From an uncultured Actinomycetota bacterium (GTDB lineage Bacteria > Actinomycetota > Thermoleophilia > RBG-16-64-13), in NCBI GenBank assembly GCA_963721365.1, contig CAVRJE010000016.1, positions 6,701 to 70,700 on the forward strand: a stretch of 64,000 bases of DNA, read 5' to 3'. Below the pieces are notes generated by a model. The model did not search any database, was not told where the DNA came from, and saw only the letters and a program-made list of their open reading frames with translations. How positions within the stretch are numbered: the first letter of the stretch is position 1; each line of letters starts with the position of its first letter. This document shows positions 46,307-60,607 of the stretch, piece after piece. Position numbers and translations under genes: made by a program.

Positions 46307-46900
46307 GTGAAGTCATTCTTCGGTTGGACGGCTCCCCTGTTCAAACTCAGCCGGCACCGGTTCTCAGATGCCGATTTCCAGCGCTTCGCGGACCACGTGC
46401 GGCCGTGCGTGCCGTCCGGCGGCCGGTTGCTCGACTTGGGCGGCGGCACCGGGGACCTAGGCCTGGGGGTCGGAAGAGCGCTCGGCGCCGATGTCGTCGT
46501 GGCGGACGTCACCCCCGAGATGCTCTATCGGGTCTCCGCGCATCCGTCCATGTCGGTCCGGCTCACGGCCGCCGAATCCCTCCCCTTCGCCGATGCCTAT
46601 TTCGACGGGCTGCTTTGCTCGGACGCCTTCCATCACTTCCGCGACCAAGCAGCCGCGGCGCGAGAGATGGCCCGCGTGGTGCGGCCCGGGGGCTGCATGC
46701 TGGTGCTCGAGTTCCGCCGAGCCGGCTTCGGCCACTTTCTGGTATTCGCTGAGCGCCGCCTCGGGGAGCCCGGCTCCTTCCTCGAGCCCGAGGAACTTCG
46801 TACCCTACTGGCCGCGGAGGGCGTTGACGGCTCGATTACCCAGAAGGGGCTGATCACCTACACGTTCGCCGGCTACAACCGGGGAACGCACACGGCCTAG
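46307..46900 (+). CDS. Class I SAM-dependent methyltransferase
   Basis: Motif [10 protein letters not shown] and post-I/II motifs, 197 aa. Confidence 0.8.
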
Positions 46901-46913
46901 CCGAGGAGCCGGA

Positions 46914-47006
46914 GTGTCCGTGTTCCGTTGGGCCGCGCCGCTCTTCAAGCGCGGCGCCCGTCACTGGGGCGATGGCGACTTCCGGTTCATCGCCGGTAGG
47001 CTGCGG
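46914..47006 (+). pseudogene. Truncated paralogue (first ~31 codons) of the adjacent methyltransferase
   Basis: GTG start with [39 protein letters not shown] aligns with [32 protein letters not shown] of the upstream gene. The similarity stops where the convergent panC core begins. Confidence 0.6.
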
Positions 47007-47859
47007 CCCACGGTGATGTTGTCGATCAGCCTCGTCTCGCCGAACCAGACCGCAGGCGCGATCAGGCAGGTACCGACGACGACGTCGCAGCGAGGCCAGG
47101 TCGTCCGTGTCCACGATCTCCACGTAGTCGATCTTCGCGAGGTCCGCTTCCGCGACCAGCGCGCAGATCTCGTCCTTGAGCCGCCGGACATCACGCTCTC
47201 CGTTCTCCACCAGCGTCAGCGCCGCCGACAGAGCCCGGTGGAGCACGGGCGCCTGCGCCCGCTCCTCCGGGGAGAGCCGGACATTGCGCGAGCCGAGGGC
47301 AAGGCCGTCGGGCTCGCGGACGGTGGGGCAGGGCACTATCCGGACGGGGATGTCGAGTTCTCTCACCATCTTCTTGATCACTGCCAGCTGCTGAGCGTCC
47401 TTCTCCCCGAAGTACGCCCGGTCCGGCCGGCAGATGTTGAAGAGCTTGGTCACGACCGTGCACACACCCACGGAAGTGGCCCGGCCTTGATGCTCCGCAC
47501 AATCCCTGGGTCAGCCCTTCCACCTCGACCCAGGTGGAGAAGCCCTTCGTCGGGTACATCTCCCACACCGGCGGGCTGAAGACAAGGTCGGCGCCGGCGT
47601 TCCGCGCGAGCGCCAGGTCACGTTCCAGGTCGCGGGGATAGGTCTCGAGATCCTCGCCCGCCCCGAACTGAGTTGGATTGACGAAGATCGATACGACGAC
47701 GAACCCGTTTTCGGCTCGCGCCCGGCGGATCAGAGAGAGGTGCCCCTCGTGGAGGGCCCCCATCGTAGGAACGAGCCCGATGGTCGCGTCCCGGCCTCGA
47801 GCCTCTTCGAGCACGGACCGCACGCCGGCGATCGTCTCGATGCAGGGGATGCGCGCCAT
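46961..47859 (-). pseudogene. panC: Pantoate--beta-alanine ligase, two frame breaks as assembled
   Basis: Motifs [35 protein letters not shown] spread over ORFs 47191-48129, 46854-47471 and 46961-47194. Two +1 offsets lie near 47470-47490 and 47090. The ATG overlaps the upstream stop (TGATG). Confidence 0.85.
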
Positions 47860-48848
47860 CAACCGCGGGCTCCCGTGCCGCTGCCTGCCTCCGCGTCCCG
47901 CCCCGCCCAGTCGGACACCGACGGCGCCCCTCCCAGGCTCTCGGCCTCCCGCACCGCCCGGCGGATGCTTGCCGCGACCGCTTCCGCGGCGGCCACCCCC
48001 ACCTGGAACACGTTGCTCGTCCGGCGGCCGGTCGCCATCACGAAGACACAGTCTCCGTCTCGAGGAGTGTGAACGGGGTCTATCGCCCGAGCCATACCAT
48101 CGTGAGCCATGCGAGCGACGATGGCGCATTGCAGTTTGTCGAGTGCGGCGTCGGTCATGACGACCGCGAGCGTGGTGCTTTCGATGGCGCCGAAGACCGG
48201 CGCCGAGGTCATGGCGAGCAGCGAGGCCTTGCTGCCGGCGAACCCAGCGCCGCGGCGCGCCCCTGCGAGGATGTCCCCCCGCTCATCCAGTACGTCGCCC
48301 AGCGCGTTCACCACGGTCAGCGCGCTCACGGTCACGCGGCCGCCGATCTCCACCGAGGCCAGGCCTACCCCGCCTTTCATCAGCCCCTCGAAGTTGAGCA
48401 GCTTGCCGACCGTCGCTCCCGTGCCCGCGCCCACCGACCCTTCCCCGACGATATGCCCTGCCGAGGCCGCCGCCTGATACGCCTCCCGAGCGCGCGGGCA
48501 GGCTTCCGCGCTCCCGAGGCCGAGGTCGTAGATGACCGCGGCGGCGACGAGGGGGATCTTGGCGAACGGGGTCTGGTATCCGTGCCCGCCCTCCTGGAGG
48601 AAGGTGGTGACTCCCGCGGCCGCCGCCAATCCCGGTGCGCTCCCCCCGGTCAGAAGAACGGCATGGAGCTCCGCTACCGAAGCGTACGGCGAAAGAAGGG
48701 CGGTCTCGAGCGTCCCCGGGGCTCCTCCCCGGATGTCGACCGACGCGACCACCCCTTGGGGAGCCAGCACGGCCGTGCAGCCGGTCAGCCCCTCCAGGTC
48801 GGAGTAATGACCGATGGAGATCCCTTCGAGCGGGAGTTCGGCCGCCAT
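47859..48848 (-). CDS. P1 (DmpA/S58) family aminopeptidase
   Basis: 329 aa with conserved GxTGCTAVL, GGAPGT and the self-cleavage-type GxGT(G)A pattern typical of DmpA/BapA-like Ntn hydrolases. Confidence 0.75.
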
Positions 48849-48877
48849 TTCGCCTCCGGGTCTGCTCGGGTCCGGAC

Positions 48878-50182
48878 CTACCGCGAGTTCTTCCTCATCT
48901 GGTCAAGGAACTCCGTATTGGACTTGGTCTCCTTGAGCTTCTGGATGAGCAGCTCGATGGCGGCGTTCGGGTCGAGCGCATGGAGCACCGACCGCAACTT
49001 CCAGACCATCTTGGCCTCGGCCGGATCCATCAGGAGCTCTTCCTTCCGCGTGCCGGAGTTCTCGATGTCGATGGCCGGGAAGATCCGCTTGTTCGCCAGC
49101 TGGCGGGTGAGCCGTACTTCCCAGTTGCCGGTACCCTTGAACTCCTCGAAGATGACCTCGTCCATCCGCGACCCCGTCTCCACAAGCGCCGTGGCGAGGA
49201 TGGTGAGCGAGCCCCCCTCCTCGATGTTCCGGGCGGCCCCGAAGAATTTCTTGGGCGGATAGAGCGCGGTCGAGTCCACCCCACCCGAGAGGATGCGGCC
49301 GCTGGCCGGCGCCTGCAGGTTGTAGGCCCGGGCCATACGGGTGATGGAGTCAAGAAGCACGACCACGTCCCTGCCCACTTCAACCAGGCGCTTGACCCGC
49401 TCCAGCACCAACTCGGTGACCTGCACGTGGTTCTCGCCCGGCATGTCGAACGTAGAACTGACCACTTCGCCCGTCACCGTACGCTCCATGTCGGTGACCT
49501 CCTCCGGCCGCTCATCGACGAGCAGCACGAGCAGGTGCACCTCGGGGTTGTTGGTAGCGATGGCGTGCGCCAGATCCTTCAGGATGGTTGTCTTCCCCGC
49601 CTTCGGAGGCGAAACGATCAGGCCTCGCTGGCCCTTGCCGAGGGGACTCATGATATCCATGACCCGGGCGGAGAGGCGATCGGGCGTGGTCTCGAGCCGC
49701 AGGCGCTCATCGGGGAACAAGGGCGTCAGCGAATCGAAGGTCGGGCGGTGGCGCGCCTGCTCGGGATCCATACCGTTGACGGTCTGGATCTTGAGGAGGG
49801 CGTGGTACTTCTCGTTGTCGCGCGGGGTCCGCACTTGGCCGTTGATCTCGTCGCCCCGACGCAGCTTGAAGCGTCTGATCTGAGACAGGGACACATATAT
49901 GTCGGAGTCCGACTGGGTGTAGCCCTGGGTCCGCAGAAAGCCGTAGCCATCCGGGAGGATATCGAGCAGCCCGGTGCGAAAATGCAGGCCTCTGTCCTGG
50001 GATTGCTCGTTCAGGATCTTCATGATGAGATCCTGCTTCGAGTACTTGCGGAAGTTCTTGATGCCGAGCTCCCCGGCGACCATGTGCAGGTCGGACAGGA
50101 GCTTGGGCTCGATCTCGGCCAGCGAGGTGGCTCTTGCCGTCGTGCGGCTTTCTTGTTCGTCGTTCTCGTTCATTCGCAACAA
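48878..50182 (-). CDS. rho: Transcription termination factor Rho
   Basis: 434 aa with Rho N-terminal and CSD-like RNA-binding domain, Walker A PPKAGKT, and the RecA-type core. The start may be MNENDEQ three codons in. Confidence 0.95.
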   Translation of the reverse strand: MLRMNENDEQESRTTARATSLAEIEPKLLSDLHMVAGELGIKNFRKYSKQDLIMKILNEQSQDRGLHFRTGLLDILPDGYGFLRTQGYTQSDSDIYVSLSQIRRFKLRRGDEINGQVRTPRDNEKYHALLKIQTVNGMDPEQARHRPTFDSLTPLFPDERLRLETTPDRLSARVMDIMSPLGKGQRGLIVSPPKAGKTTILKDLAHAIATNNPEVHLLVLLVDERPEEVTDMERTVTGEVVSSTFDMPGENHVQVTELVLERVKRLVEVGRDVVVLLDSITRMARAYNLQAPASGRILSGGVDSTALYPPKKFFGAARNIEEGGSLTILATALVETGSRMDEVIFEEFKGTGNWEVRLTRQLANKRIFPAIDIENSGTRKEELLMDPAEAKMVWKLRSVLHALDPNAAIELLIQKLKETKSNTEFLDQMRKNSR

Positions 50183-50216
50183 TCTCTTCTTTCGTTCGTT
50201 CGTTCTTTGAACCTGG

Positions 50217-51254
50217 TCATCTGATTCCGAGAGCCACCATCGGGCCCCCGTTCTCGGAGCGATGCAACGTCCTTATGGTGCGGACCGCGTGGCAGTTGGA
50301 GCACAGCACCAGCGTCTCGGTCTGCACGCCGTCGGGCCGCACGTCTATGCCCCGGAGGAACCTGCCCCCGGTCACGCCCGTGGCTGCGAACAAGACACCG
50401 TCGCCGGCCATGTCGGCAGTGGCCAGAGGAGCCTCGACATCATCGAGACCGGTCGCCCGCACCTGCTCCACCTGATGGCGGGATACCGGCCAGAAGCGGG
50501 CGCGTATCTCGCCGCCGAGGCAGCGCATGGCCGCCGCTGCGATCACTCCTTCGACGGAGCCTCCTATCCCGATGGTCATGTGGACTCCGCTGTCTCTGGC
50601 CGCAGCCGCGATGCCGGCCGAGATATCGCCGTCGGGTATCAGCCTGAGACGCGCGCCCGCCGCCCGTATCTGAGCGGCCAATTCGTCGTGCCGCGGCCTG
50701 TCGAGGACGACCACCACGAGCTCTCCGGGCTCACGCCCAAGGGCCGCGGCGACGCGGCGGATGTTCTCGCCCACCGACGCGTCGATATCGACGGCAGCCC
50801 CAGCACGGCCGGCGACCATCACCTTCTGCATGTACATCTCGGGCACCGGCATCAGGCTTCCCCGGGGTCCCGCAGCTATCATCGCCAGTGCGCCCTCGGC
50901 TCCGCGGGCAAGGGCGTTGAGGGCTTCGAGGGGCTGCACCACGGCGTCCCATACCGGGGAGAGGCTTTTGGCCTCGCCGGTTTCGCTGACCTCGCCGGTC
51001 TCGCCGGCCCAGTCCCCGGGGACGCCGCCCAACTCGTCTCCCGGCTGAAGCAAGGCAGGCCCCCGGCCGCTGCCGCGGCTCGCGACCACTCTGACCTTCA
51101 CAGGCATCTCGGCCAGAGCGTCGGCCATCGCCGTGCGGGCCGCCATTTCACCGGCCAGCCCATCGCCCCGCCCGATCCAGTCCGCCGCTCCCAGCGCGGC
51201 CGCCTCGGTCACCACCGCGAAACGCGCACATATACAGCGGCCCTCAGCGTTCAC
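50217..51254 (-). CDS. glpX: Class II fructose-1,6-bisphosphatase (GlpX)-like protein, divergent
   Basis: GlpX signature VTEAAALGAADWIGRGD, IPDGDISAGI, GIGGSVEGV. It has an insert, and two canonical metal-ligand positions are non-canonical (see findings). The GTG start overlaps the 2PGK end. Confidence 0.75.
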   Translation of the reverse strand: MNAEGRCICARFAVVTEAAALGAADWIGRGDGLAGEMAARTAMADALAEMPVKVRVVASRGSGRGPALLQPGDELGGVPGDWAGETGEVSETGEAKSLSPVWDAVVQPLEALNALARGAEGALAMIAAGPRGSLMPVPEMYMQKVMVAGRAGAAVDIDASVGENIRRVAAALGREPGELVVVVLDRPRHDELAAQIRAAGARLRLIPDGDISAGIAAAARDSGVHMTIGIGGSVEGVIAAAAMRCLGGEIRARFWPVSRHQVEQVRATGLDDVEAPLATADMAGDGVLFAATGVTGGRFLRGIDVRPDGVQTETLVLCSNCHAVRTIRTLHRSENGGPMVALGIR

Positions 51255-52222
51255 CAGCCTGCACCTCAGTCTGCTCGATGACTCCGTACAGCGCGTCCAC
51301 TACCGTCCCGACCGTGTCGTCGATGCTCACGTTGTCTACCACGAGCGTGCCCTCCGTCGCGGCCCGCTCGAGGATGAACCCCTGGATCTTCCTGATATCG
51401 TCGAACCCCTGCAGATATCGGGCCAGCTTTCTCTTGCCGGAGGTCTGCTGCTCGCGCACCATGAAATGGCTCCTGTGAAGCGCGGGGTCGGTCACCGAGA
51501 CGACCAGTGGCAGCAGCAACACATCCGACATGCGCTCTTCGCTCGCCCTCGGCGCCAGCATTCCCGGCACCATATGTACCCCTTCTACCACCAGACTCGT
51601 CCGCTCCCTTATCGCCCGGTCGATGATGGCGAGCACTCCCACCGCGACCATCTCGACCTGCTCCATGAATCCCAGCAGCCCCGCGTCGAACCCCGCGCCC
51701 ACCGGGATCCTCACCGCCATACCCGCCTCGTACGACGAGTAGTGGATGGACGGCATGCAGCGTCTCCGAAAAGAACGCCCGCATCGCCTCCCGGATGGAA
51801 TCGGTGGAAATGATCCTCACGATCCCCAGCCGCTCCGCCACCTGCGCCGCGATGGTGCTCTTCCCCACTCCCGTCGCGCCGCCGATGAGTACGACGACCG
51901 GTCGGTCTTCGGCCGCCATTCGGTTCCAGACCCGGTACCGCAGCAGATACCGGGGCTCCACGCTATCGGCGAGCACCGTCTCCACCAACCGGCGAAGCTC
52001 GACCACGCTGATCTCGCGCTCCGCGGACTGCAACAGCTGCCACTCCACATCGAGCGCCACTGCATATGCCCGCTGCGGCGAAAGCCCGGTAGAGGTGAGA
52101 GCCGTCGCGAGAAGCCCCTTGGAGAACGGGACCTTGTGCCCCTCGCTCACCAGCTGGATGGGAGGCCCCTCGGGCTTCCCTGTCGCCTCGCGCGACTCTC
52201 CCTTCTCCATGGGACCGTTCAC
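51244..52222 (-). pseudogene. 2-phosphoglycerate kinase (ATP-cone + P-loop kinase), one frame break as assembled
   Basis: N-terminal ATP-cone-like segment (VPFSKGLLATALTSTGLSPQRAY), P-loop LIGGATGVGKSTIA, and C-terminal half in ORF 51244-51756. A +1 offset lies near 51750. Confidence 0.65.
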
Positions 52223-52226
52223 CTTT

Positions 52227-53627
52227 TCACAACCGCTCCTCGAACCTCTCTCTCGCCGACGCCGCCAATCCCCGGGCCAGCGCCTCCAGCGCCCCGCTGC
52301 CCTCCTCGGGCTCGCCCTCCGCAGAGACCTCCATCGGCACGTTGTCCATGAAGATCACCGGGAGCCCTCGCGCCACCGCCTCTTCGGCCACCACGTCGAT
52401 GGCCGCCGCCTTGATCTCCGTGAGCACTGCATCGACCCGGCCCATCGCCTCGCTCTGGAGGTCCTGCCTGAGTGCCGCGCGATCGGCGAGGTGGGTAGAG
52501 AACAACTCGATCCGGCATCCCCACCGCTCCTCCAGATGCCTGCGCAGTACCGCTTTCTGCGCCTCGGGCGCCGTCGAGAAACAGGCGACCCTTCGGCCCC
52601 GCACGTCCTCGACGGGCCGGGGGCGGAACACCACGGGCAGCACGGGCATACCCGGCCGCACCCTCTCCACCGCTTCCCGGACCATCCGGACCTTCTCCGG
52701 CGACGCCAACGGCTCCTCGGCCATCGTCAAGACGACCGCGTCGCTGATAAGCAGCCGGTAGGCGCCCAAGTAGCCGGCGATGTCGTCCACCGCCTGGTGC
52801 GCCCCTGCCACCAACAGCCGGGCATCGCTGCCCACCGGCGGCTGAGCCGCTCCGCTCCCTTCCAGCACGATCAACTCCGGCCCCAGGCTGTTCGCCAACC
52901 TGACCCCCTCGGCGACGTTGGTAGCGAACGGCTGTCCCGCCATGCCTCCCCCGCAACGCCGGCACCCAACGGTCACGACTCCGCTCAGAACGGCGTCTTC
53001 GAAGTGATCCGAGGCCGCATGGCGCCCCCGCCTACTCCAGGCAAGCAGGTCTTCTGCCTCCAAACGCCGCTTGGTCCCGTCGATGACCTCGGGCTCCGCC
53101 GGTCCGCCCCGCCCCATGGCAACCACGACGATCCCTGGGTGTCCCGCCCGCGCGGGGACGGCTGCTTGAAGGACCCGGGCCACATACCCGCTGATGGCGG
53201 TCTTCCCCACTCGCTTGCCGGTACCGATGATGGCCAACGAGGGAGCCGTGCAAATACGTTCGGAAGTCGCGGGGCTGAAGTGGAAATCGGGACCTACGTA
53301 GCCCACCTCGCGCGCCAAAGTCTTGCTCGCAAGGCGAAAACGTTCTACGTATCCTAGCACCGGTTCGTCACTAAGGTCAACGACCACTTGGGGGCGATAA
53401 CGGTCGATGGCGGTGTCGAGCCCCCGCGACCAGTCTTCGTCGAAGATCACGGGCAGGCCATACGCCTCCTCCGCCCCTTCTTCCAGACCGCCCCGCAGGA
53501 TCTTCTCCGCCCCCCCAAGGAAGAGGGCCGCCCGGAAGTCGAACCGGTCGGATGCCTGCCGCAGCGCGTCGACGACCACCGGAGGGTAGTGCTCGCCGTC
53601 GATCAGGACTACGGCCGAGAGTCTCAT
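52227..53627 (-). CDS. Putative cyclic 2,3-diphosphoglycerate synthetase
   Basis: 466 aa. The N-terminus LIDGEHYPPVV, the internal P-loop IGTGKRVGKTA, the size, and adjacency to a 2-phosphoglycerate kinase fit my recollection of the cDPG synthetase family. Not verified by search. Confidence 0.55.
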   Translation of the reverse strand: MRLSAVVLIDGEHYPPVVVDALRQASDRFDFRAALFLGGAEKILRGGLEEGAEEAYGLPVIFDEDWSRGLDTAIDRYRPQVVVDLSDEPVLGYVERFRLASKTLAREVGYVGPDFHFSPATSERICTAPSLAIIGTGKRVGKTAISGYVARVLQAAVPARAGHPGIVVVAMGRGGPAEPEVIDGTKRRLEAEDLLAWSRRGRHAASDHFEDAVLSGVVTVGCRRCGGGMAGQPFATNVAEGVRLANSLGPELIVLEGSGAAQPPVGSDARLLVAGAHQAVDDIAGYLGAYRLLISDAVVLTMAEEPLASPEKVRMVREAVERVRPGMPVLPVVFRPRPVEDVRGRRVACFSTAPEAQKAVLRRHLEERWGCRIELFSTHLADRAALRQDLQSEAMGRVDAVLTEIKAAAIDVVAEEAVARGLPVIFMDNVPMEVSAEGEPEEGSGALEALARGLAASARERFEERL

Positions 53628-53646
53628 CGCGTCGCGAGGCGCCGCA

Positions 53647-54402
53647 TCAGCCGGGAGAGCGATCGAATTCCACGATGCTCTCGCCGCCGTGGAACGGGTA
53701 GCGCCGCGACACCGTCACGTGCTCGCCCTTGATCTCCACGACGTTGTAGCAGGGCTTGGTATCGCCGCGCAGACGGAGCGTGGCCACGGTGCCGGCGTTG
53801 ACGACGTACATGTTCTCCAGACGCCACGCGTACGGCACGTGCTTGTGGCCGGAGAGCACAAGGTCAACCCCGCACTCCACCAACACTTCCAGCACGTCGC
53901 CCGCGTCGTTGACGATGTTGCGCTCCCTTCCGGTGCCGGGGATGGGCAGCAGGTGGTGGTGGAGCATGAAGATCTTGACGTCGTCCGGGTTCTCCATGAA
54001 CGCTTCCCGGATCCACTGGTACCGGTGCCGGCCGATACGGCCGTAGTCGAGGTCGGGTTCGGTGGAATCCACACCTAGCAGCGTCACCCCCTGCTTGCGG
54101 ACGATCGTCTGGCGGGCGGCGAAGAGCCGCTCGAAGTGGGCGTACCCCACGTTACGGCTGTCATGGTTGCCAGGCACGACGAGAACATCGGGGCACGTAA
54201 GCCTGTCCAGGTACTCGCGCGCCTCCCGGAACTCCTGGCGGTATCCCATGTTCGTCAGGTCGCCGGTGACGGCGACGATGTCGGGGCTCAGGTCGTTGAC
54301 CTCCACCAGCGTCCGGTCCAGCAGGTTGGGCACGAAGTACTGCGAGCCCAGGTGCAGGTCGGACAGGTGAGCGATAACGCACGAGCGGGTCTGATCTCCC
54401 AT
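53647..54402 (-). CDS. Calcineurin-like metallophosphoesterase
   Basis: Motifs SDLHLG, GDLTN, GNHD, HHH, GHKH. 251 aa, 19 nt upstream of the synthetase gene. Confidence 0.85.
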   Translation of the reverse strand: MGDQTRSCVIAHLSDLHLGSQYFVPNLLDRTLVEVNDLSPDIVAVTGDLTNMGYRQEFREAREYLDRLTCPDVLVVPGNHDSRNVGYAHFERLFAARQTIVRKQGVTLLGVDSTEPDLDYGRIGRHRYQWIREAFMENPDDVKIFMLHHHLLPIPGTGRERNIVNDAGDVLEVLVECGVDLVLSGHKHVPYAWRLENMYVVNAGTVATLRLRGDTKPCYNVVEIKGEHVTVSRRYPFHGGESIVEFDRSPG

Positions 54403-54428
54403 CGTGACTACTCCGCCCGGGGACGCGC

Positions 54429-54588
54429 TTCAGAATGGAGTTTCGCCGGGTGCCCACCGCGGGCGTGGGACGCGATGGGCGAGTGCGAGGCTAGGACGCA
54501 GGAGCGGCGTAGCGGCGCTACGCGCGCGACCGAGGACGACGCATCGCGCCGACCAGTGCGCACTAGGCGGCCGCAACTTCATTCTGAA
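54429..54588. repeat. ~160-bp nested imperfect palindrome between thrC and the phosphoesterase gene
   Basis: Outer arms TTCAGAATGGAGTT (54429-54442) and AACTTCATTCTGAA (54575-54588), 13/14 complementary. Middle arms CGCGATG (54471-54477) and CATCGCG (54542-54548). Central hairpin GCGTAGC-GGC-GCTACGC (54507-54523). Confidence 0.7.
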
Positions 54589-55654
54589 ACGGGTCCTTGG
54601 CGATGATTTCCTCGACCGCGGCAAGATCGGCAGGGCAATGGATGATCGGGCGGGACTGATCGATGGCGGTCTGCGGGTCCTTGAGGCCGTGACCGGTGAG
54701 CACGCACACAAGGGTGTCCCCCTTCGGAAGCCCGTTGGCACCGTACTTGAGAAGCCCGGCGACGCTCGCCGCCGAAGCGGGCTCGCAGAAGACACCCTCT
54801 TTCTGGGCAAGCAGCCGCTGCGCCGCTAGGATCTCCTCGTCCGTCACGTCGCGGATGACGCCGCCCGAGTCGCCGGCCGCGGCCAGGGCTTCGTCGCCCC
54901 GCGCCGGGTTGCCGATGCGGATGGCCGTGGCGATGGTCTCCGGCTTCTCCACGATGTGACCGCACACCAGCGGGTTCGCGCCTTCCGCCTGGAATCCCCA
55001 GACGACGGGCAGCCTACCCGCGAGGCCCCGCTCCTTGTATTCGCGGAACCCCTTCCAGTACGCGGTGATATTCCCCGCGTTGCCGACGGGGATGGACAGC
55101 ATCGCCGGGGCGTCACCCAGGGCGTCGACGATCTCGAAAGCCGCCGTCTTCTGTCCTTCGATGCGGTAGGGGTTGAGAGAGTTGACCAGGGTGATACGCC
55201 GCCGTTCGGAGAGTTCCTTGACGTACTCGAGCGCCAGGTCGAAGTTGCCCTCGATAGCGATAGCGACCGCGCCGTGCATCAGGGCCTGGGAGAGCTTGCC
55301 CATGGCGATCTTGCCCTCGGGGATGAGCACGACGCAGCGCAGTCCCGCCCGGGCGGCGTAGGCGGCCGCCGAAGCGGAGGTGTTGCCGGTCGAGGCGCAG
55401 ATGACCGCGGTCGCGTCGTCTTCGAGGGCCTTGGTGATGGCCACCGTCATCCCTCGGTCTTTGAAAGACCCGGTGGGGTTGGCGGCCTCGTACTTGAGAT
55501 ACACCTCGCAGCCGAGCTCTCCGCTGAGCCACCTGGCGGGGACTAGCGGCGTGCTTCCCTCCCCCAGCGTCGCCGGGACGGTATCGGGCTTGAGCGGCAG
55601 GAACTCCCGATAGCGCTCGATGACGCCGAACGGCGCCGCTGCGCGGGCGCCCAT
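54563..55654 (-). CDS. thrC: Threonine synthase
   Basis: 363 aa with PLP-lysine motif [10 protein letters not shown]. Confidence 0.95.
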
Positions 55655-56932
55655 CTAGAGGACCCTCAGCGTCATCGGCTCGCTGCTGCAACAGCTCAAG
55701 GCGTTCGCCTCCCGGATGGCTGCGAAGAAGTTCTTCTCCTTGGTGGGGTGCGTGATAAGCACCAACTCCGCCTCCGCGCCTCTGCCCTTCTGGATCATGC
55801 TCGCTATCGATACCCCGTGATCGCCGAACACCGAGGCGATGCGGGCGAGCACTCCCGACACGTCCTCCACGTTCATCTTGATGAAGAACGCCGACTCGAC
55901 CTCCTCGGCGGGGTAGAAATCGAGCTCGCGGTAGCAGGAGCAACTCTGGAGGAAGCCCACGTCTTTCGTGTTGGCGATCGAAACGATGTCGCTCACCACC
56001 GCAGTGGCGGTCGGCACCCCGCCGGCCCCCGGACCCATCAGCATGATCTCCCCGATCTCGTCTCCACGCAGGAACACGGCGTTGTTGGAGCCGTTGATGG
56101 CGGCCAGCGGATGATCCACCGGCACCAGAGCGGGGAACACGCGCACGCTGACCCTGTCTTCGATGAGCCGAGCCGCTCCGATGAGCTTGACGGCAAAGCC
56201 CAGGTCTTTGGCGTACCGGACGTCATCCAGGCTGATGTTCTCTATACCCTCGTAGGCCACATCGGCAAGCGTTACCCGGGAGTGGAAGGCGATCGACCCG
56301 AGGATGGCCATCTTGGCGGCCGCGTCGGCCCCGCCGACATCCGCTGTGGGGTCGGCCTCGGCGTAGCCCAGTTCCTGCGCTTTGGAGAGGATCTCGGCGT
56401 AGTCGCCCTCGTTGTTGTACATCCGGGTGAGGATGTAATTGGTGGTGCCGTTGACGATGCCGTTGACGGTCTTCAGGCCTGCCGCGATCATGCTTTCGCG
56501 CATCACCTTGATGATCGGGATGGCGCCGGCGACCGCGGCCTCGAAGCGCAGATGCCGTCGCTCCTCGCGGGCCAGGGTGAATAGGGCCTCGCCTCGGCTG
56601 GCCAGCAGCTGCTTGTTGGCAGTCACCACGTTCTTGCCCTTGCGCATGGCAGCGTCGAGGAAATCGAACGCCGCGCCGGTGCCGCCGATGACCTCGACAA
56701 CGATGTCGATGGACGGGTCGTCCACTATCGCGTTGAAGTCGGTGGTGAACAGACCATCGGGAACGTCCTCCGGCTGCTTGCTCGGGTCGATCTCGAGCAC
56801 GCGCGCCACCTGCAGGTCTACACCGGTGCCTTCCAGGATCTGATCGTGCTCTCTCTGGATCAGCCGGTAGACACTCGACCCGATCGTGCCGAATCCCAGC
56901 AGACCTATGCGCACGACCCTATCCCGGCTCAT
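55655..56932 (-). CDS. hom: Homoserine dehydrogenase
   Basis: 425 aa with the GFGTIGSSV NAD fold, catalytic domain and C-terminal ACT domain. Confidence 0.95.
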   Translation of the reverse strand: MSRDRVVRIGLLGFGTIGSSVYRLIQREHDQILEGTGVDLQVARVLEIDPSKQPEDVPDGLFTTDFNAIVDDPSIDIVVEVIGGTGAAFDFLDAAMRKGKNVVTANKQLLASRGEALFTLAREERRHLRFEAAVAGAIPIIKVMRESMIAAGLKTVNGIVNGTTNYILTRMYNNEGDYAEILSKAQELGYAEADPTADVGGADAAAKMAILGSIAFHSRVTLADVAYEGIENISLDDVRYAKDLGFAVKLIGAARLIEDRVSVRVFPALVPVDHPLAAINGSNNAVFLRGDEIGEIMLMGPGAGGVPTATAVVSDIVSIANTKDVGFLQSCSCYRELDFYPAEEVESAFFIKMNVEDVSGVLARIASVFGDHGVSIASMIQKGRGAEAELVLITHPTKEKNFFAAIREANALSCCSSEPMTLRVL

Positions 56933-56946
56933 GCTCTCCCTCGCTC

Positions 56947-58272
56947 CTATTCGCTATCGTGCAGTGGACGGTGCTTGGCCACGAGGTCGGCATAGCTCTC
57001 GCGTTCGACGATCACCCGCGCCTGCCCATCGCGAACCAGGATCACCGCGGGCCGCGGACTGCCGTTGTAGTTCGACGACATCGCAAAGCAATACGCACCG
57101 GTGGCCGGCATCACGAGAATATCTCCCGGCTCTGGCCGGGCAAGGACGACGTCCCGAATAAGGATGTCTCCGCTCTCGCAATGCTTACCGGCCACCGTGA
57201 CTCTGGTATCGGCAGCAACGCCGGCTTTGTTAGCGAGCATGCCCTCGTAGAGCGCGTCGTAGAGCATCGGACGGATGTTGTCGCTCATGCCCCCATCGAC
57301 GCTCACGTAGGTGCGGACCCCGGGGATCTCCTTGATGGTGCCCACGGTGTAGGCGGTGACGCCCGCCTTGCCCACGATCGAGCGCCCCGGCTCGATGAGC
57401 ACCCGCGGCATGGGCAGCCCCCGGGCCGCCATCTCTTCCCTCACGCCCTCCACCTTGACGGCCGCGTAGTCGCCGATGGACGACGGGGTGTCTTCCTCGG
57501 TGTAGCGGATACCCAGCCCGCCCCCGATGTTGAGAGAGCGGCACTCGAACCCGAGGCTCTCGCCGGCCTGGGCGATGAGGCCGACCAGGATGTCGATGGC
57601 TTTGCGGAACGACTCCAGTTCAAAGATCTGGCTGCCTATGTGGGCGTGCAGACCGGTCAGTTCGAGATGAGGGGCTGCCATCGCCCGCCGGATGGCCTCC
57701 ATGGCCACCCCATCCTCGAGGCCGAACCCGAACTTGGAGTCCACCTGCCCTGTCTGGATGTAGGAATGAGTGTGCGCCTCGATGCCCGGGGTGATGCGTA
57801 GCAGTACCTTCTGCCGCCCGCCTCGCGCCCCCACCAGCTCGTCGAGCAAAGCCAGTTCCTGGAAGCTATCGACCACCACAAAGCCCACGCCGCCGGAAAG
57901 GGCGAACTCGAGCTCGTCCCGGGTCTTGTTGTTGCCGTGGAAGAAGATCTTCTCCGCCGGGAAGCCGGCCACCTTGGCCACGTGGTACTCGCCGCCCGAA
58001 GATACGTCGATCGACAGGCCCTCCTCGAGGACCATCTGGGCGATCGCTACCGTGGAGAACGCTTTGCTCGCGTAGATGATCTCGAAATCCTGGGTGTGTT
58101 CCCCGAACGCGCTCATGTAGCGGCGGCACTGGTCGCGGATGGAGGTCTCCTCGTAGACCACCAGCGGCGTGCCGAAGGTCGCTGCCAGCTCGACGACGTC
58201 GCAGCCACCGATCTCGAGATGCCCGGCGGCGTTGTGAGACGAGGTGATGGGATAGACGAGCGTGTGGGTCAA
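56947..58272 (-). CDS. lysA: Diaminopimelate decarboxylase
   Basis: 441-aa fold-III PLP decarboxylase (YASKAF, GGGLGI, CESGD). TTG start after SD GGAGG. Confidence 0.95.
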   Translation of the reverse strand: MTHTLVYPITSSHNAAGHLEIGGCDVVELAATFGTPLVVYEETSIRDQCRRYMSAFGEHTQDFEIIYASKAFSTVAIAQMVLEEGLSIDVSSGGEYHVAKVAGFPAEKIFFHGNNKTRDELEFALSGGVGFVVVDSFQELALLDELVGARGGRQKVLLRITPGIEAHTHSYIQTGQVDSKFGFGLEDGVAMEAIRRAMAAPHLELTGLHAHIGSQIFELESFRKAIDILVGLIAQAGESLGFECRSLNIGGGLGIRYTEEDTPSSIGDYAAVKVEGVREEMAARGLPMPRVLIEPGRSIVGKAGVTAYTVGTIKEIPGVRTYVSVDGGMSDNIRPMLYDALYEGMLANKAGVAADTRVTVAGKHCESGDILIRDVVLARPEPGDILVMPATGAYCFAMSSNYNGSPRPAVILVRDGQARVIVERESYADLVAKHRPLHDSE

Positions 58273-58395
58273 GACAGCCTCCAGACGGGAAACACGGGTA
58301 CGTTACCACAGAGGCTGCTGGAGCACGACGCCTCGCGTAGGAGCGCAATGGGCGAGTGCGAGAGAAGGAGCAGGCTGATAGAATGGACATCCAGC

Positions 58396-58752
58396 ATGAC
58401 CGAGCAGCCGTCCATCTTCTCCTATTACCGGGGCACCAAAGAACCCAGTTTCGCCACCCGGACCGAGCTCGAGGCGGCCAAGCTGTTCGACTATCACCGC
58501 ATCGCCTGGGAGTACGAGCCACGCACATTCATCCTGGAGCAGGACGAGAGGGGGAACATCCTCGAAGCCTTCACCCCGGATTTCTATCTGCCCGACCTGG
58601 AGTTGTTCGTCGAGGTGACCGAGATGAAACAGTCCCTCGTGACGGCGAAGAACCGCAAGGTCCGCAAGCTCAGGGAGAAATACCCGGAGGCCCACATCAA
58701 GCTCCTCTACCGCAAGGACTTCGTCCGGATGGCTCAGAAATACGGCTTGTGA
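58396..58752 (+). CDS. Small PD-(D/E)XK nuclease-fold protein (TnsA/Vsr-like pattern), function unknown
   Basis: 118 aa with the pattern ...TELEAAKLFDYH...FTPDFYLP...LFVEVTEMK. ATG lies 11 nt after a TAGAAT -10 box. Confidence 0.45.
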   Translation: MTEQPSIFSYYRGTKEPSFATRTELEAAKLFDYHRIAWEYEPRTFILEQDERGNILEAFTPDFYLPDLELFVEVTEMKQSLVTAKNRKVRKLREKYPEAHIKLLYRKDFVRMAQKYGL

Positions 58753-60414: not shown

Positions 60415-60459
60415 CCGTCCTCCTTCGCCCTGGGAGCGTTCTCGCCCCTGCCTCGATGA

Positions 60460-60531: not shown

Positions 60532-60607
60532 TGGAGCGGAGTACGGGGGTCGAACCCGCGACATCCAGCTTGGGAAGCTGGCACTCTACCAACTGAGTTA
60601 ACTCCGC
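60532..60607 (-). tRNA. tRNA-Gly (anticodon CCC), CCA encoded
   Basis: Hand-folded: acceptor GCGGAGU/ACUCCGC, anticodon stem CCAGC/GCUGG with loop UUCCCAA, T-arm GCGGGTTCGACCCCCGT, discriminator U + CCA. Confidence 0.9.

Follow-up and report, generated by a model that had tools for sequence, protein, structure and literature searches.

A conserved three-gene cluster potentially involved in cyclic 2,3-diphosphoglycerate synthesis and turnover in deep-branching Actinomycetota

Introduction

Cyclic 2,3-diphosphoglycerate (cDPG) was described as exclusive to hyperthermophilic methanogens in papers published in 2023 and 2025 (PMC10690619, PMC12136491). Its synthesis has been regarded as a diversion of gluconeogenesis, and the compound has been proposed to serve as a store of carbon and phosphate (review, PMC1224877). 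In Methanothermobacter thermautotrophicus, a separate hydrolase activity, which is membrane-bound and subject to inhibition by K+ and Pi, converts cDPG to 2,3-diphosphoglycerate (2,3-DPG) (PMC1224877). In the cDPG synthetase (cDPGS) of Methanothermus fervidus, 2,3-DPG, Mg2+, and ADP are bound by K145, R146, K149, T150, D208, E305, T353, E404, and K406, together with E45 and K46 of the partner subunit (PMC10690619). The arginine synthetase ArcE (TK2200) of Thermococcus kodakarensis shows low similarity to cDPGS and has been compared with cDPGS as the outgroup (PMC11032458). In this study, we analyzed a gene cluster with a cDPGS homologue in a 64,000-nucleotide stretch of contig CAVRJE010000016.1 (assembly GCA_963721365.1; hereinafter referred to as the window) from an uncultured member of the Actinomycetota.

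The cluster consists of three genes on the minus strand, encoding a metallophosphoesterase (MPE; 251 aa; 53647–54402), the cDPGS homologue (466 aa; 52227–53627), and a 2-phosphoglycerate kinase (2PGK)-like protein (51244–52222), identified by matches to Pfam Metallophos, PDB 8ORK, and NCBIfam PRK04220, respectively. The analysis followed up a reading made from the sequence alone (hereinafter referred to as the sequence-only reading), which had pointed out this trio. With a probability of roughly 55%, the cluster represents, in this genome, a vertically inherited three-gene module that would make and turn over cDPG in deep-branching Actinomycetota. The enzyme families are known, and the bacterial synthetase has already been named by the JGI and NCBI annotation pipelines. 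No recognition that a synthetase-kinase-phosphoesterase operon is conserved in deep-branching Actinomycetota was found in the searchable literature. Likewise, nothing relevant on cDPG or its synthetase was found there for Actinobacteria, Thermoleophilia, Rubrobacter, Coriobacteriia, or Aquicultor, and the genome paper of Gaiella occulta made no mention of cDPG. The statement in the sequence-only reading that the two-step pathway is not known to have been characterized biochemically outside hyperthermophilic methanogens was in agreement with the searchable papers, which describe cDPG as confined to these organisms (PMC10690619, PMC12136491).

cDPG synthetase homologue

The 466-aa protein had no match in the Pfam-A or NCBIfam libraries used, and that copy of Pfam-A apparently did not contain PF27272; its family was therefore settled by a sequence search against PDB. 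The protein matched the cDPGS of M. fervidus (PDB 8ORK/8ORU) with a phmmer E-value of 1.3e-113, with residues 6–435 of the query aligned to residues 8–435 of the chain. The identity was 44% over 422 columns, and the alignment took in the unique N-terminal domain of the M. fervidus enzyme (approximately 127 aa). In addition, relatives of the window protein at 89–92% identity carry a precomputed match to Pfam PF27272 (CpgS_N). The membership in the cDPG synthetase family, which had been proposed from the size, motifs, and gene context of the protein, was thus borne out.

Residue conservation was evaluated in a set of 81 sequences consisting of the window protein and 80 relatives, using the residue numbering of the M. 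fervidus enzyme. E45, K46, K145, R146, K149, T150, D208, T353, E404, and K406 were invariant in the 81 sequences, and E305 was retained in 79 of them. The equivalents in the window protein are E41, K42, the motif GTGKRVGKT at 135–143, D207, E304, T352, E404, and K406; every published 2,3-DPG, Mg2+, and ATP/ADP residue is kept. As judged from its sequence, the window synthetase thus has everything needed for catalysis and substrate binding in the cyclization of 2,3-DPG.

Distribution and conserved gene neighborhood

A genome scan with one genome per species yielded at least 512 matching stretches, and the best 80 of these loci were analyzed. At the protein level, the scored candidates of the synthetase family formed at least 8000 clusters when grouped at 90% identity; at 50% identity, there were 231 clusters with E ≤ 1e-30. 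Almost all of the best 80 loci were found in metagenome-assembled genomes (MAGs) of Actinomycetota (Thermoleophilia, Gaiellales, Rubrobacter, Coriobacteriia, and Aquicultor), while two were archaeal and one belonged to an Anaerolineae MAG. The record names of some carrier MAGs suggest that they originated from permafrost, palsa, peat, groundwater, or digester samples. The loci nearest to the window, in which Rho was 99% identical, came from MAGs of Actinomycetota, Thermoleophilia, and Gaiellales, in accordance with the actinobacterial host that had been deduced from synteny; the host is a soil-type actinobacterium.

Gene order was counted by tblastn of the window proteins against the 80 best loci. 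The MPE gene was directly upstream of the synthetase gene in 71 of 79 evaluable loci, and the kinase gene was directly downstream in 73 of 80, with five loci lacking a kinase despite sufficient downstream room. Both genes flanked the synthetase gene in 66 of the 80 loci. Among 65 loci, the stop codon of the MPE gene overlapped the start codon of the synthetase gene by 4 nt in 36 and by 1 nt in a further 12. The archaeal-type gene pair is thus no isolated import from archaea; the module was found to be conserved across deep-branching Actinomycetota, with the at least 512 matching stretches mentioned above.

Four gene orders were recognized. The order in the clade of the window is lysA-hom-thrC-MPE-cDPGS-2PGK-glpX-rho, and that of the Aquicultor type is thrC-thrB-MPE-cDPGS-2PGK-tal-rho. 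The Coriobacteriia type shows hom-thrB-S49 peptidase-MPE-cDPGS-2PGK-tal-rho, with the MPE gene missing in five loci, and Rubrobacter MAGs show MPE-cDPGS-glpX-rho, with the kinase gene missing. The module thus occupies a constant chromosomal slot, with threonine biosynthesis genes on one side and glpX or tal plus rho on the other. A TAL_FSA gene replaces glpX at its position in other lineages, and where a locus extends far enough downstream, the module is nearly always followed by rho. Since this slot is constant across lineages, the module appears best explained as having been passed down vertically in these deep-branching Actinomycetota since an early actinobacterial ancestor, and not as a recent transfer into this genome.

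In the five Coriobacteriia-type loci that have lost the MPE gene (L026, L038, L041, L048, and L062), a gene for a membrane-anchored S49 (SppA-like) peptidase was located directly upstream of the synthetase gene, and in another locus (L061) the S49 gene was located just upstream of the MPE gene. Further, in the locus of the Anaerolineae MAG (L053), a phosphoglycerate-mutase-like gene (11383–13017 of that locus) overlaps the cDPGS homologue by 4 nt and takes the place of the 2PGK gene. Its product is a circularly permuted, cofactor-independent mutase-like protein, with the Metalloenzyme core first and iPGM_N last, and may provide an alternative route to the substrate of the synthetase.

These partners bear on whether the synthetase homologue acts on a different substrate or in a different direction, such as an ArcE-like reaction, formation of another cyclic pyrophosphate, or the reverse reaction to ATP, in which case the cluster would yield no cDPG. 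The cDPGS superfamily includes a quite different reaction, that of ArcE/TK2200 (PMC11032458), the reaction of M. fervidus cDPGS has been reported to be reversible (PMC1224877), no report of bacterial cDPG was found in the searchable literature, and the kinase falls beneath its equivalog cut-off (see below). However, the similarity of ArcE to cDPGS is described as low, compared with the 44% identity between the window protein and the characterized enzyme, and the 2,3-DPG contacts E45, K46, K145, and R146 are invariant. Moreover, no gene for ornithine carbamoyltransferase or carbamate kinase was found between lysA and panC in the window, L084, or L085. Downstream, the synthetase has a 2PGK homologue as its constant partner, and the phosphoglycerate-mutase-like gene that takes this place in the Anaerolineae locus likewise points to phosphoglycerate chemistry. 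A product other than cDPG was therefore considered very unlikely.

2-Phosphoglycerate kinase-like protein

The third gene had been read as a single gene for 2-phosphoglycerate kinase. Its span of 979 nt is not divisible by three, and the gene was found to be split over two reading frames by an extra base at 51758 (C on the plus strand, G on the coding strand; minus-strand context ACGCT[G]CATGCC), located by DNA alignment with five relatives. Frame one (51266–52222) encodes the ATP-cone and the P-loop and is genuine to approximately residue 155, up to '...FFSETL', and frame two (51244–51756) encodes the C-terminal 170 residues, beginning with MPSIHYSSYEAG. In the NCBIfam model PRK04220 (NF003259), the N-terminal piece covers profile positions 10–139 and the C-terminal piece 140–296. 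Removal of one base gave a 325-aa kinase, which matched positions 10–296 of the 306 positions of this profile with 282.5 bits (E = 4e-84); the kinase orthologue of L061 scored 302.6 bits. Pfam matches were found for the ATP-cone at residues 27–100 and for an AAA_33/Zeta_toxin P-loop at 104–150, and the motif GGATGVGKST was kept across the relatives. The assignment as 2-phosphoglycerate kinase was thus sustained as a full-length family match after repair, but the score was under the equivalog cut-off (282.5 versus 343 bits), so that the substrate is suggested by context, not assigned. We infer that the protein is a full-length member of the 2PGK family with 2-phosphoglycerate (2-PG) as its probable substrate, on the basis of homology and context.

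The extra base was the sole indel in the kinase gene and was absent from the five relatives compared (L001, L002, L003, L005, and L084). The alignment was unbroken across the whole kinase in 71 of 73 relatives, and intact kinases of 321 and 327 aa are encoded in the nearest genomes. Both halves of the window gene are open, with 86–91% amino acid identity to the relatives around 51758. A comparable situation was found in panC (pantoate-beta-alanine ligase; 46854–48129), which is broken by two isolated and uncompensated 1-nt insertions at 47088 and 47470 in comparison with three relatives. In L084 and L085, panC is a single Pantoate_ligase gene (284/290-aa product, partly past the fetched DNA). 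Since similar 1-nt insertions break this nearby gene, an assembly error is also the likelier cause in the kinase, and the frameshift most probably arose as an error in the assembly or the consensus and is not the mark of a pseudogene.

A real frameshift would make the kinase a fresh pseudogene, with the module decaying or running without its first step. It may be pointed out for this explanation that the extra base lies outside any homopolymer, that the MPE-synthetase pair persists without an adjacent kinase in Rubrobacter loci, and that a 20-nt insertion in the window, unlike in relatives, abolishes the conserved overlap of the MPE and synthetase genes. Such decay nevertheless appears unlikely, given that the kinase gene has one indel only, that its halves are open and well conserved, and that panC, which is normally indispensable, contains two uncompensated insertions within the same window. 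In addition, two of the three coding insertions (51758 and 47088) share the plus-strand context G[C]AGCG, resembling a systematic consensus error, and split housekeeping genes were also seen in several related long-read MAGs (e.g., the rho gene of L003 and the hom gene of L004). If the extra base is real, the module would be only just disabled. Programmed frameshifting was dropped as an explanation, because there is no slippery run at this position and all relatives are in frame.

As separate observations, the G[C]AGCG context hints at a systematic consensus error possibly linked to a methylation motif, and one nucleotide that is present in four related genomes was deleted at 60418, close to a tRNA gene (60535–60607), in a stretch that is otherwise alignable.

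Metallophosphoesterase

The MPE matched Pfam Metallophos (PF00149) with 69.2 bits, above the cut-off of 21.5, and the five metal-binding motifs (SDLH, GDLT, GNHD, HHH, and GHKH) were all conserved. Additional basic residues (R125, R159, R161, K187, and R210) were invariant across 72 sequences. These sequences contain invariant Arg/Lys-rich motifs specific to this MPE, HHHLxPxPGTGRERN and GHKHVPxxW. The AlphaFold2 model showed a pLDDT of 85, and the nearest solved folds found by Foldseek were GpdQ and Rv0805, at 20–24% identity. The MPE was better conserved than its partners; for example, its identity to the L012 orthologue was 89%, as against 63% and 67–73% for the partners.

Relatives of the MPE have been named Icc / 3',5'-cAMP phosphodiesterase CpdA by the JGI pipeline. 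This name is unsupported at the equivalog level, because the MPE scored 45.3 bits against the CpdA/Icc equivalog model (NCBIfam NF008359), for which the cut-off is 225. The CpdA/Icc label is probably wrong on thousands of database entries of this phosphoesterase.

This class-III-phosphodiesterase-like protein is a plausible candidate hydrolase of cDPG or 2,3-DPG, as suggested by the conserved adjacency to the synthetase gene and the stop/start overlaps. Alternatively, the synthetase and the kinase may make cDPG while the MPE is an unrelated cyclic-nucleotide or general phosphodiesterase that shares an old operon. The JGI naming, the nearest sequences (phmmer) and folds, which are GpdQ and the cNMP phosphodiesterase Rv0805, the five Coriobacteriia-type loci holding synthetase and kinase without MPE, and the lack of an MPE homologue close to cpgS in four methanogen loci are in line with this explanation. 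In contrast, the adjacency of MPE and synthetase persists through class-level divergence (71 of 79 evaluable loci), 4- or 1-nt overlaps occur in 48 of 65 loci, and the pair is retained in Rubrobacter even though the kinase is gone. The score of only 45 bits against the CpdA cut-off of 225 and the Arg/Lys-rich motifs that the MPE has of its own also argue against a cyclic-nucleotide or general phosphodiesterase. A bystander role of the MPE was thus regarded as rather unlikely.

Proposed pathway and physiological role

In the proposed pathway, the ATP-cone/P-loop kinase would convert 2-PG to 2,3-DPG, as its homology and gene context suggest. The synthetase would then spend a second ATP to close the intramolecular pyrophosphate ring (2,3-DPG + ATP → cDPG + ADP + Pi), which is the best-supported step in view of the conserved active-site residues. 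The upstream, translationally coupled MPE would reopen the ring or dephosphorylate 2,3-DPG, for which gene coupling is the evidence. Carbon and phosphate would return to 2-PG/3-phosphoglycerate and lower gluconeogenesis, which would fit the co-transcribed glpX gene (replaced by transaldolase/FSA in sister lineages). By analogy with ATP-cones in other proteins, the ATP-cone of the kinase suggests possible control by the adenylate level.

The glpX gene (50217–51254, minus strand, GTG start) encodes a GlpX-like protein, probably a class II fructose-1,6-bisphosphatase, with 301 bits against a cut-off of 27 for Pfam FBPase_glpX and 207 bits against a cut-off of 259 for the equivalog TIGR00330. The overlap of the kinase 3' end with the start of the GlpX-like gene, pointed out in the sequence-only reading, was confirmed and amounts to 11 nt; an identical 11-nt overlap was found in L084. 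The position of tal or glpX beside rho looks like an older neighborhood that received the trio, which weakens the linkage to glpX as evidence of function, but the overlap still argues for co-translation of kinase and glpX. The GlpX gene also contains a variable Gly/Glu/Thr-rich insertion at 50958–51022 (GDWAGETGEVSETGEAKSL), the length of which varies among the closest relatives with indels that preserve the frame overall.

Several points weigh against the interpretation of the cluster as a module making and turning over cDPG. As the sequence reads, an intact kinase cannot be made, and Rubrobacter loci have no kinase at all in this position. The kinase stays under its equivalog cut-off, and enzymes acting on other substrates belong to its family; the model of mevalonate-3-phosphate 5-kinase is also matched, with 72 bits. 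For the MPE, the closest characterized relatives are distant (folds at 20–24% identity), and the pipelines name it CpdA/Icc. The MPE is missing from five bacterial loci that retain synthetase and kinase, and in four archaeal loci a search with a threshold as loose as E ≤ 1 found no MPE homologue within 8–10 kb of cpgS. Co-expression of a synthetase and its hydrolase would be futile unless regulated. Finally, the searchable literature yielded no evidence for bacterial cDPG, either from biochemistry or from metabolite analysis.

Because several related MAGs seem to originate from non-thermal samples, thermoprotection is unlikely to be the primary role of cDPG here; more likely, the compound would serve as an anionic solute or as a reserve of phosphate, carbon, or energy. 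A growth temperature of 63°C, calculated from the IVYWREL content of nine proteins, was discarded, because this calculation yields only 52°C when applied to the M. fervidus enzyme, although M. fervidus grows at up to 97°C. A more far-reaching proposal, that deep-branching Actinomycetota, among them the Thermoleophilia and Gaiellales lineages represented here by MAGs, make cDPG at moderate temperature as a store of phosphate, carbon, or energy that is under regulation and that the MPE is the first genetically assigned cDPG hydrolase, is tentative and somewhat doubtful.

If the module does make and turn over cDPG, a compound thought to be restricted to methanogens may be common in bacteria. Under the more far-reaching proposal, the view of cDPG as a methanogen-only thermoprotectant would be overturned, and metallophosphoesterases would gain a new substrate class. 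In terms of physiology, an operonic version in hundreds of Actinomycetota genomes would shift the role of cDPG towards phosphate/carbon storage or osmotic balance, and for biotechnology, bacterial and possibly mesophilic enzymes for cDPG production would become available. The MPE provides a concrete and testable gene candidate for cDPG turnover, for which the literature consulted describes one hydrolase activity (PMC1224877), and the widespread CpdA annotation would probably have to be corrected.

Neighboring genes and local sequence changes

The trio is part of a run of genes on the minus strand at 48.9–58.3 kb, in the order lysA-hom-thrC-MPE-cDPGS-2PGK-glpX-rho. The upstream anchors of the neighborhood, taken from the list of open reading frames (ORFs) and supported by tblastn synteny, are lysA (56947–58272), hom (55655–56932), and thrC (54563–55654), and the downstream anchor is the gene for transcription termination factor Rho (48878–50182; tblastn), whose product is 99% identical to those of L001 and L002. 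Pfam labels for L084 and L085 agree on the lysA, hom, and thrC neighbors, and Rho Pfam domains were recorded in L084. Spacing is 19 nt between the MPE and synthetase genes and 4 nt between the synthetase and kinase genes. The sequence-only reading had described the trio as co-directional and tightly spaced, and this arrangement was confirmed on the minus strand; the quoted motifs, LIDGEHYPPV and GTGKRVGKTA in the 466-aa protein and LIGGATGVGKSTIA in the kinase, were also verified. With strong homologues found for each, the three are taken to be genuine genes and chance ORFs to be excluded. A scan of 48500–58600 for promoters and terminators gave no signal beyond the shuffled expectation, and a search of the window against Rfam found two tRNAs only, with no match in the cluster.

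At 53628–53648, a 17+3-nt insertion sets the stop codon of the MPE gene 19 nt from the start of the synthetase gene, whereas most relatives have a 4-nt ATGA overlap; the usual translational coupling of MPE and synthetase has thus been lost in the window genome. At the junction of thrC and the MPE gene, an inverted-repeat element was found at 54421–54596 (no strand assigned; approximately 155–175 nt). Its 25-nt imperfect terminal inverted repeats (54421–54445 and 54572–54596) are 84% complementary, and the RNA fold is a long hairpin of -100.5 kcal/mol (z = -2.57). The element was also found in L002, with a short palindromic remnant in L003, and was missing from L001 and L084, in which thrC abuts the MPE gene. 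The 160-nt gap upstream of the trio is thus attributable to its insertion. It rewrites the C-terminal residues of ThrC, with a 14-letter ending in place of ...IIATAE. The element looks like a small insertion of the miniature inverted-repeat transposable element or repetitive extragenic palindromic type, and no second copy was found in the window.

No thrB follows thrC in the window, whereas the usual actinobacterial order is thrC-thrB-rho. No homoserine kinase of the GHMP or apgM type was detected in the 64-kb window; sister lineages carry one of these types in the thr operon. Substitution of thrB by the 2PGK-like kinase was rejected, since other lineages carry the 2PGK-like gene even though their operon already contains a homoserine kinase gene, either a canonical GHMP thrB or one of the apgM type. 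The match of the kinase to a P-loop homoserine kinase model was confined to the P-loop (E = 0.0015).

Comparison with known systems

The closest described system is the archaeal cDPG pathway of M. fervidus, Methanothermobacter, and Methanopyrus, with which the window shares both enzyme families. The window synthetase and M. fervidus cDPGS align end to end, including the unique N-terminal domain, and have the P-loop GTGKRxGKT and the named ligands in common; the ATP-cone plus P-loop layout of the window kinase matches that of archaeal 2PGK. In contrast to the archaeal pathway, the host of the window is bacterial, as indicated by Rho and the actinobacterial synteny, and several related MAGs are named for non-thermal habitats. 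The window genes also stand in one operon with the MPE and a gluconeogenic gene, and the synthetase is 44% identical to the archaeal enzyme, with cDPG as its product predicted from sequence. In the loci of Methanothermobacter/Methanobacterium (L081–L083), a small UPF0058 gene lies upstream of cpgS and a RimB-like gene (PF05618) immediately downstream, with neither kinase nor MPE nearby; in the Methanolliviera locus, the kinase gene adjoins cpgS.

ArcE is a distant member of the P-loop superfamily and illustrates that an annotation as cDPGS or 'predicted GTPase' may be borne by homologues capable of other ATP-coupled reactions (PMC11032458). ArcE, compared here by its published description, tends to neighbor arcB/arcC, while the window synthetase neighbors a 2PGK homologue and the MPE gene. 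ArcE, as known here from that description, is not a better match than cDPGS for the window synthetase.

The MPE shares its fold and the five metal-binding motifs with the Rv0805/CpdA/Icc/Enterobacter GpdQ branch, from which its best Foldseek and phmmer matches came. It differs from this branch by its low identity (20–24%), its own Arg/Lys-rich motifs, a score of 45 versus 225 bits for CpdA, and its fixed translational coupling to a cDPG synthetase. To our knowledge, no gene has been assigned to the membrane-bound cDPG hydrolase of archaea. The activity described in M. thermautotrophicus corresponds to the reaction proposed for the MPE, which would feed carbon and phosphate into gluconeogenesis (PMC1224877). 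In contrast to the membrane-bound archaeal enzyme, the MPE has no long hydrophobic stretch and looks soluble. Because of this difference, and with no MPE homologue near the archaeal cpgS genes, the MPE may represent a non-orthologous, bacteria-specific solution to cDPG hydrolysis.

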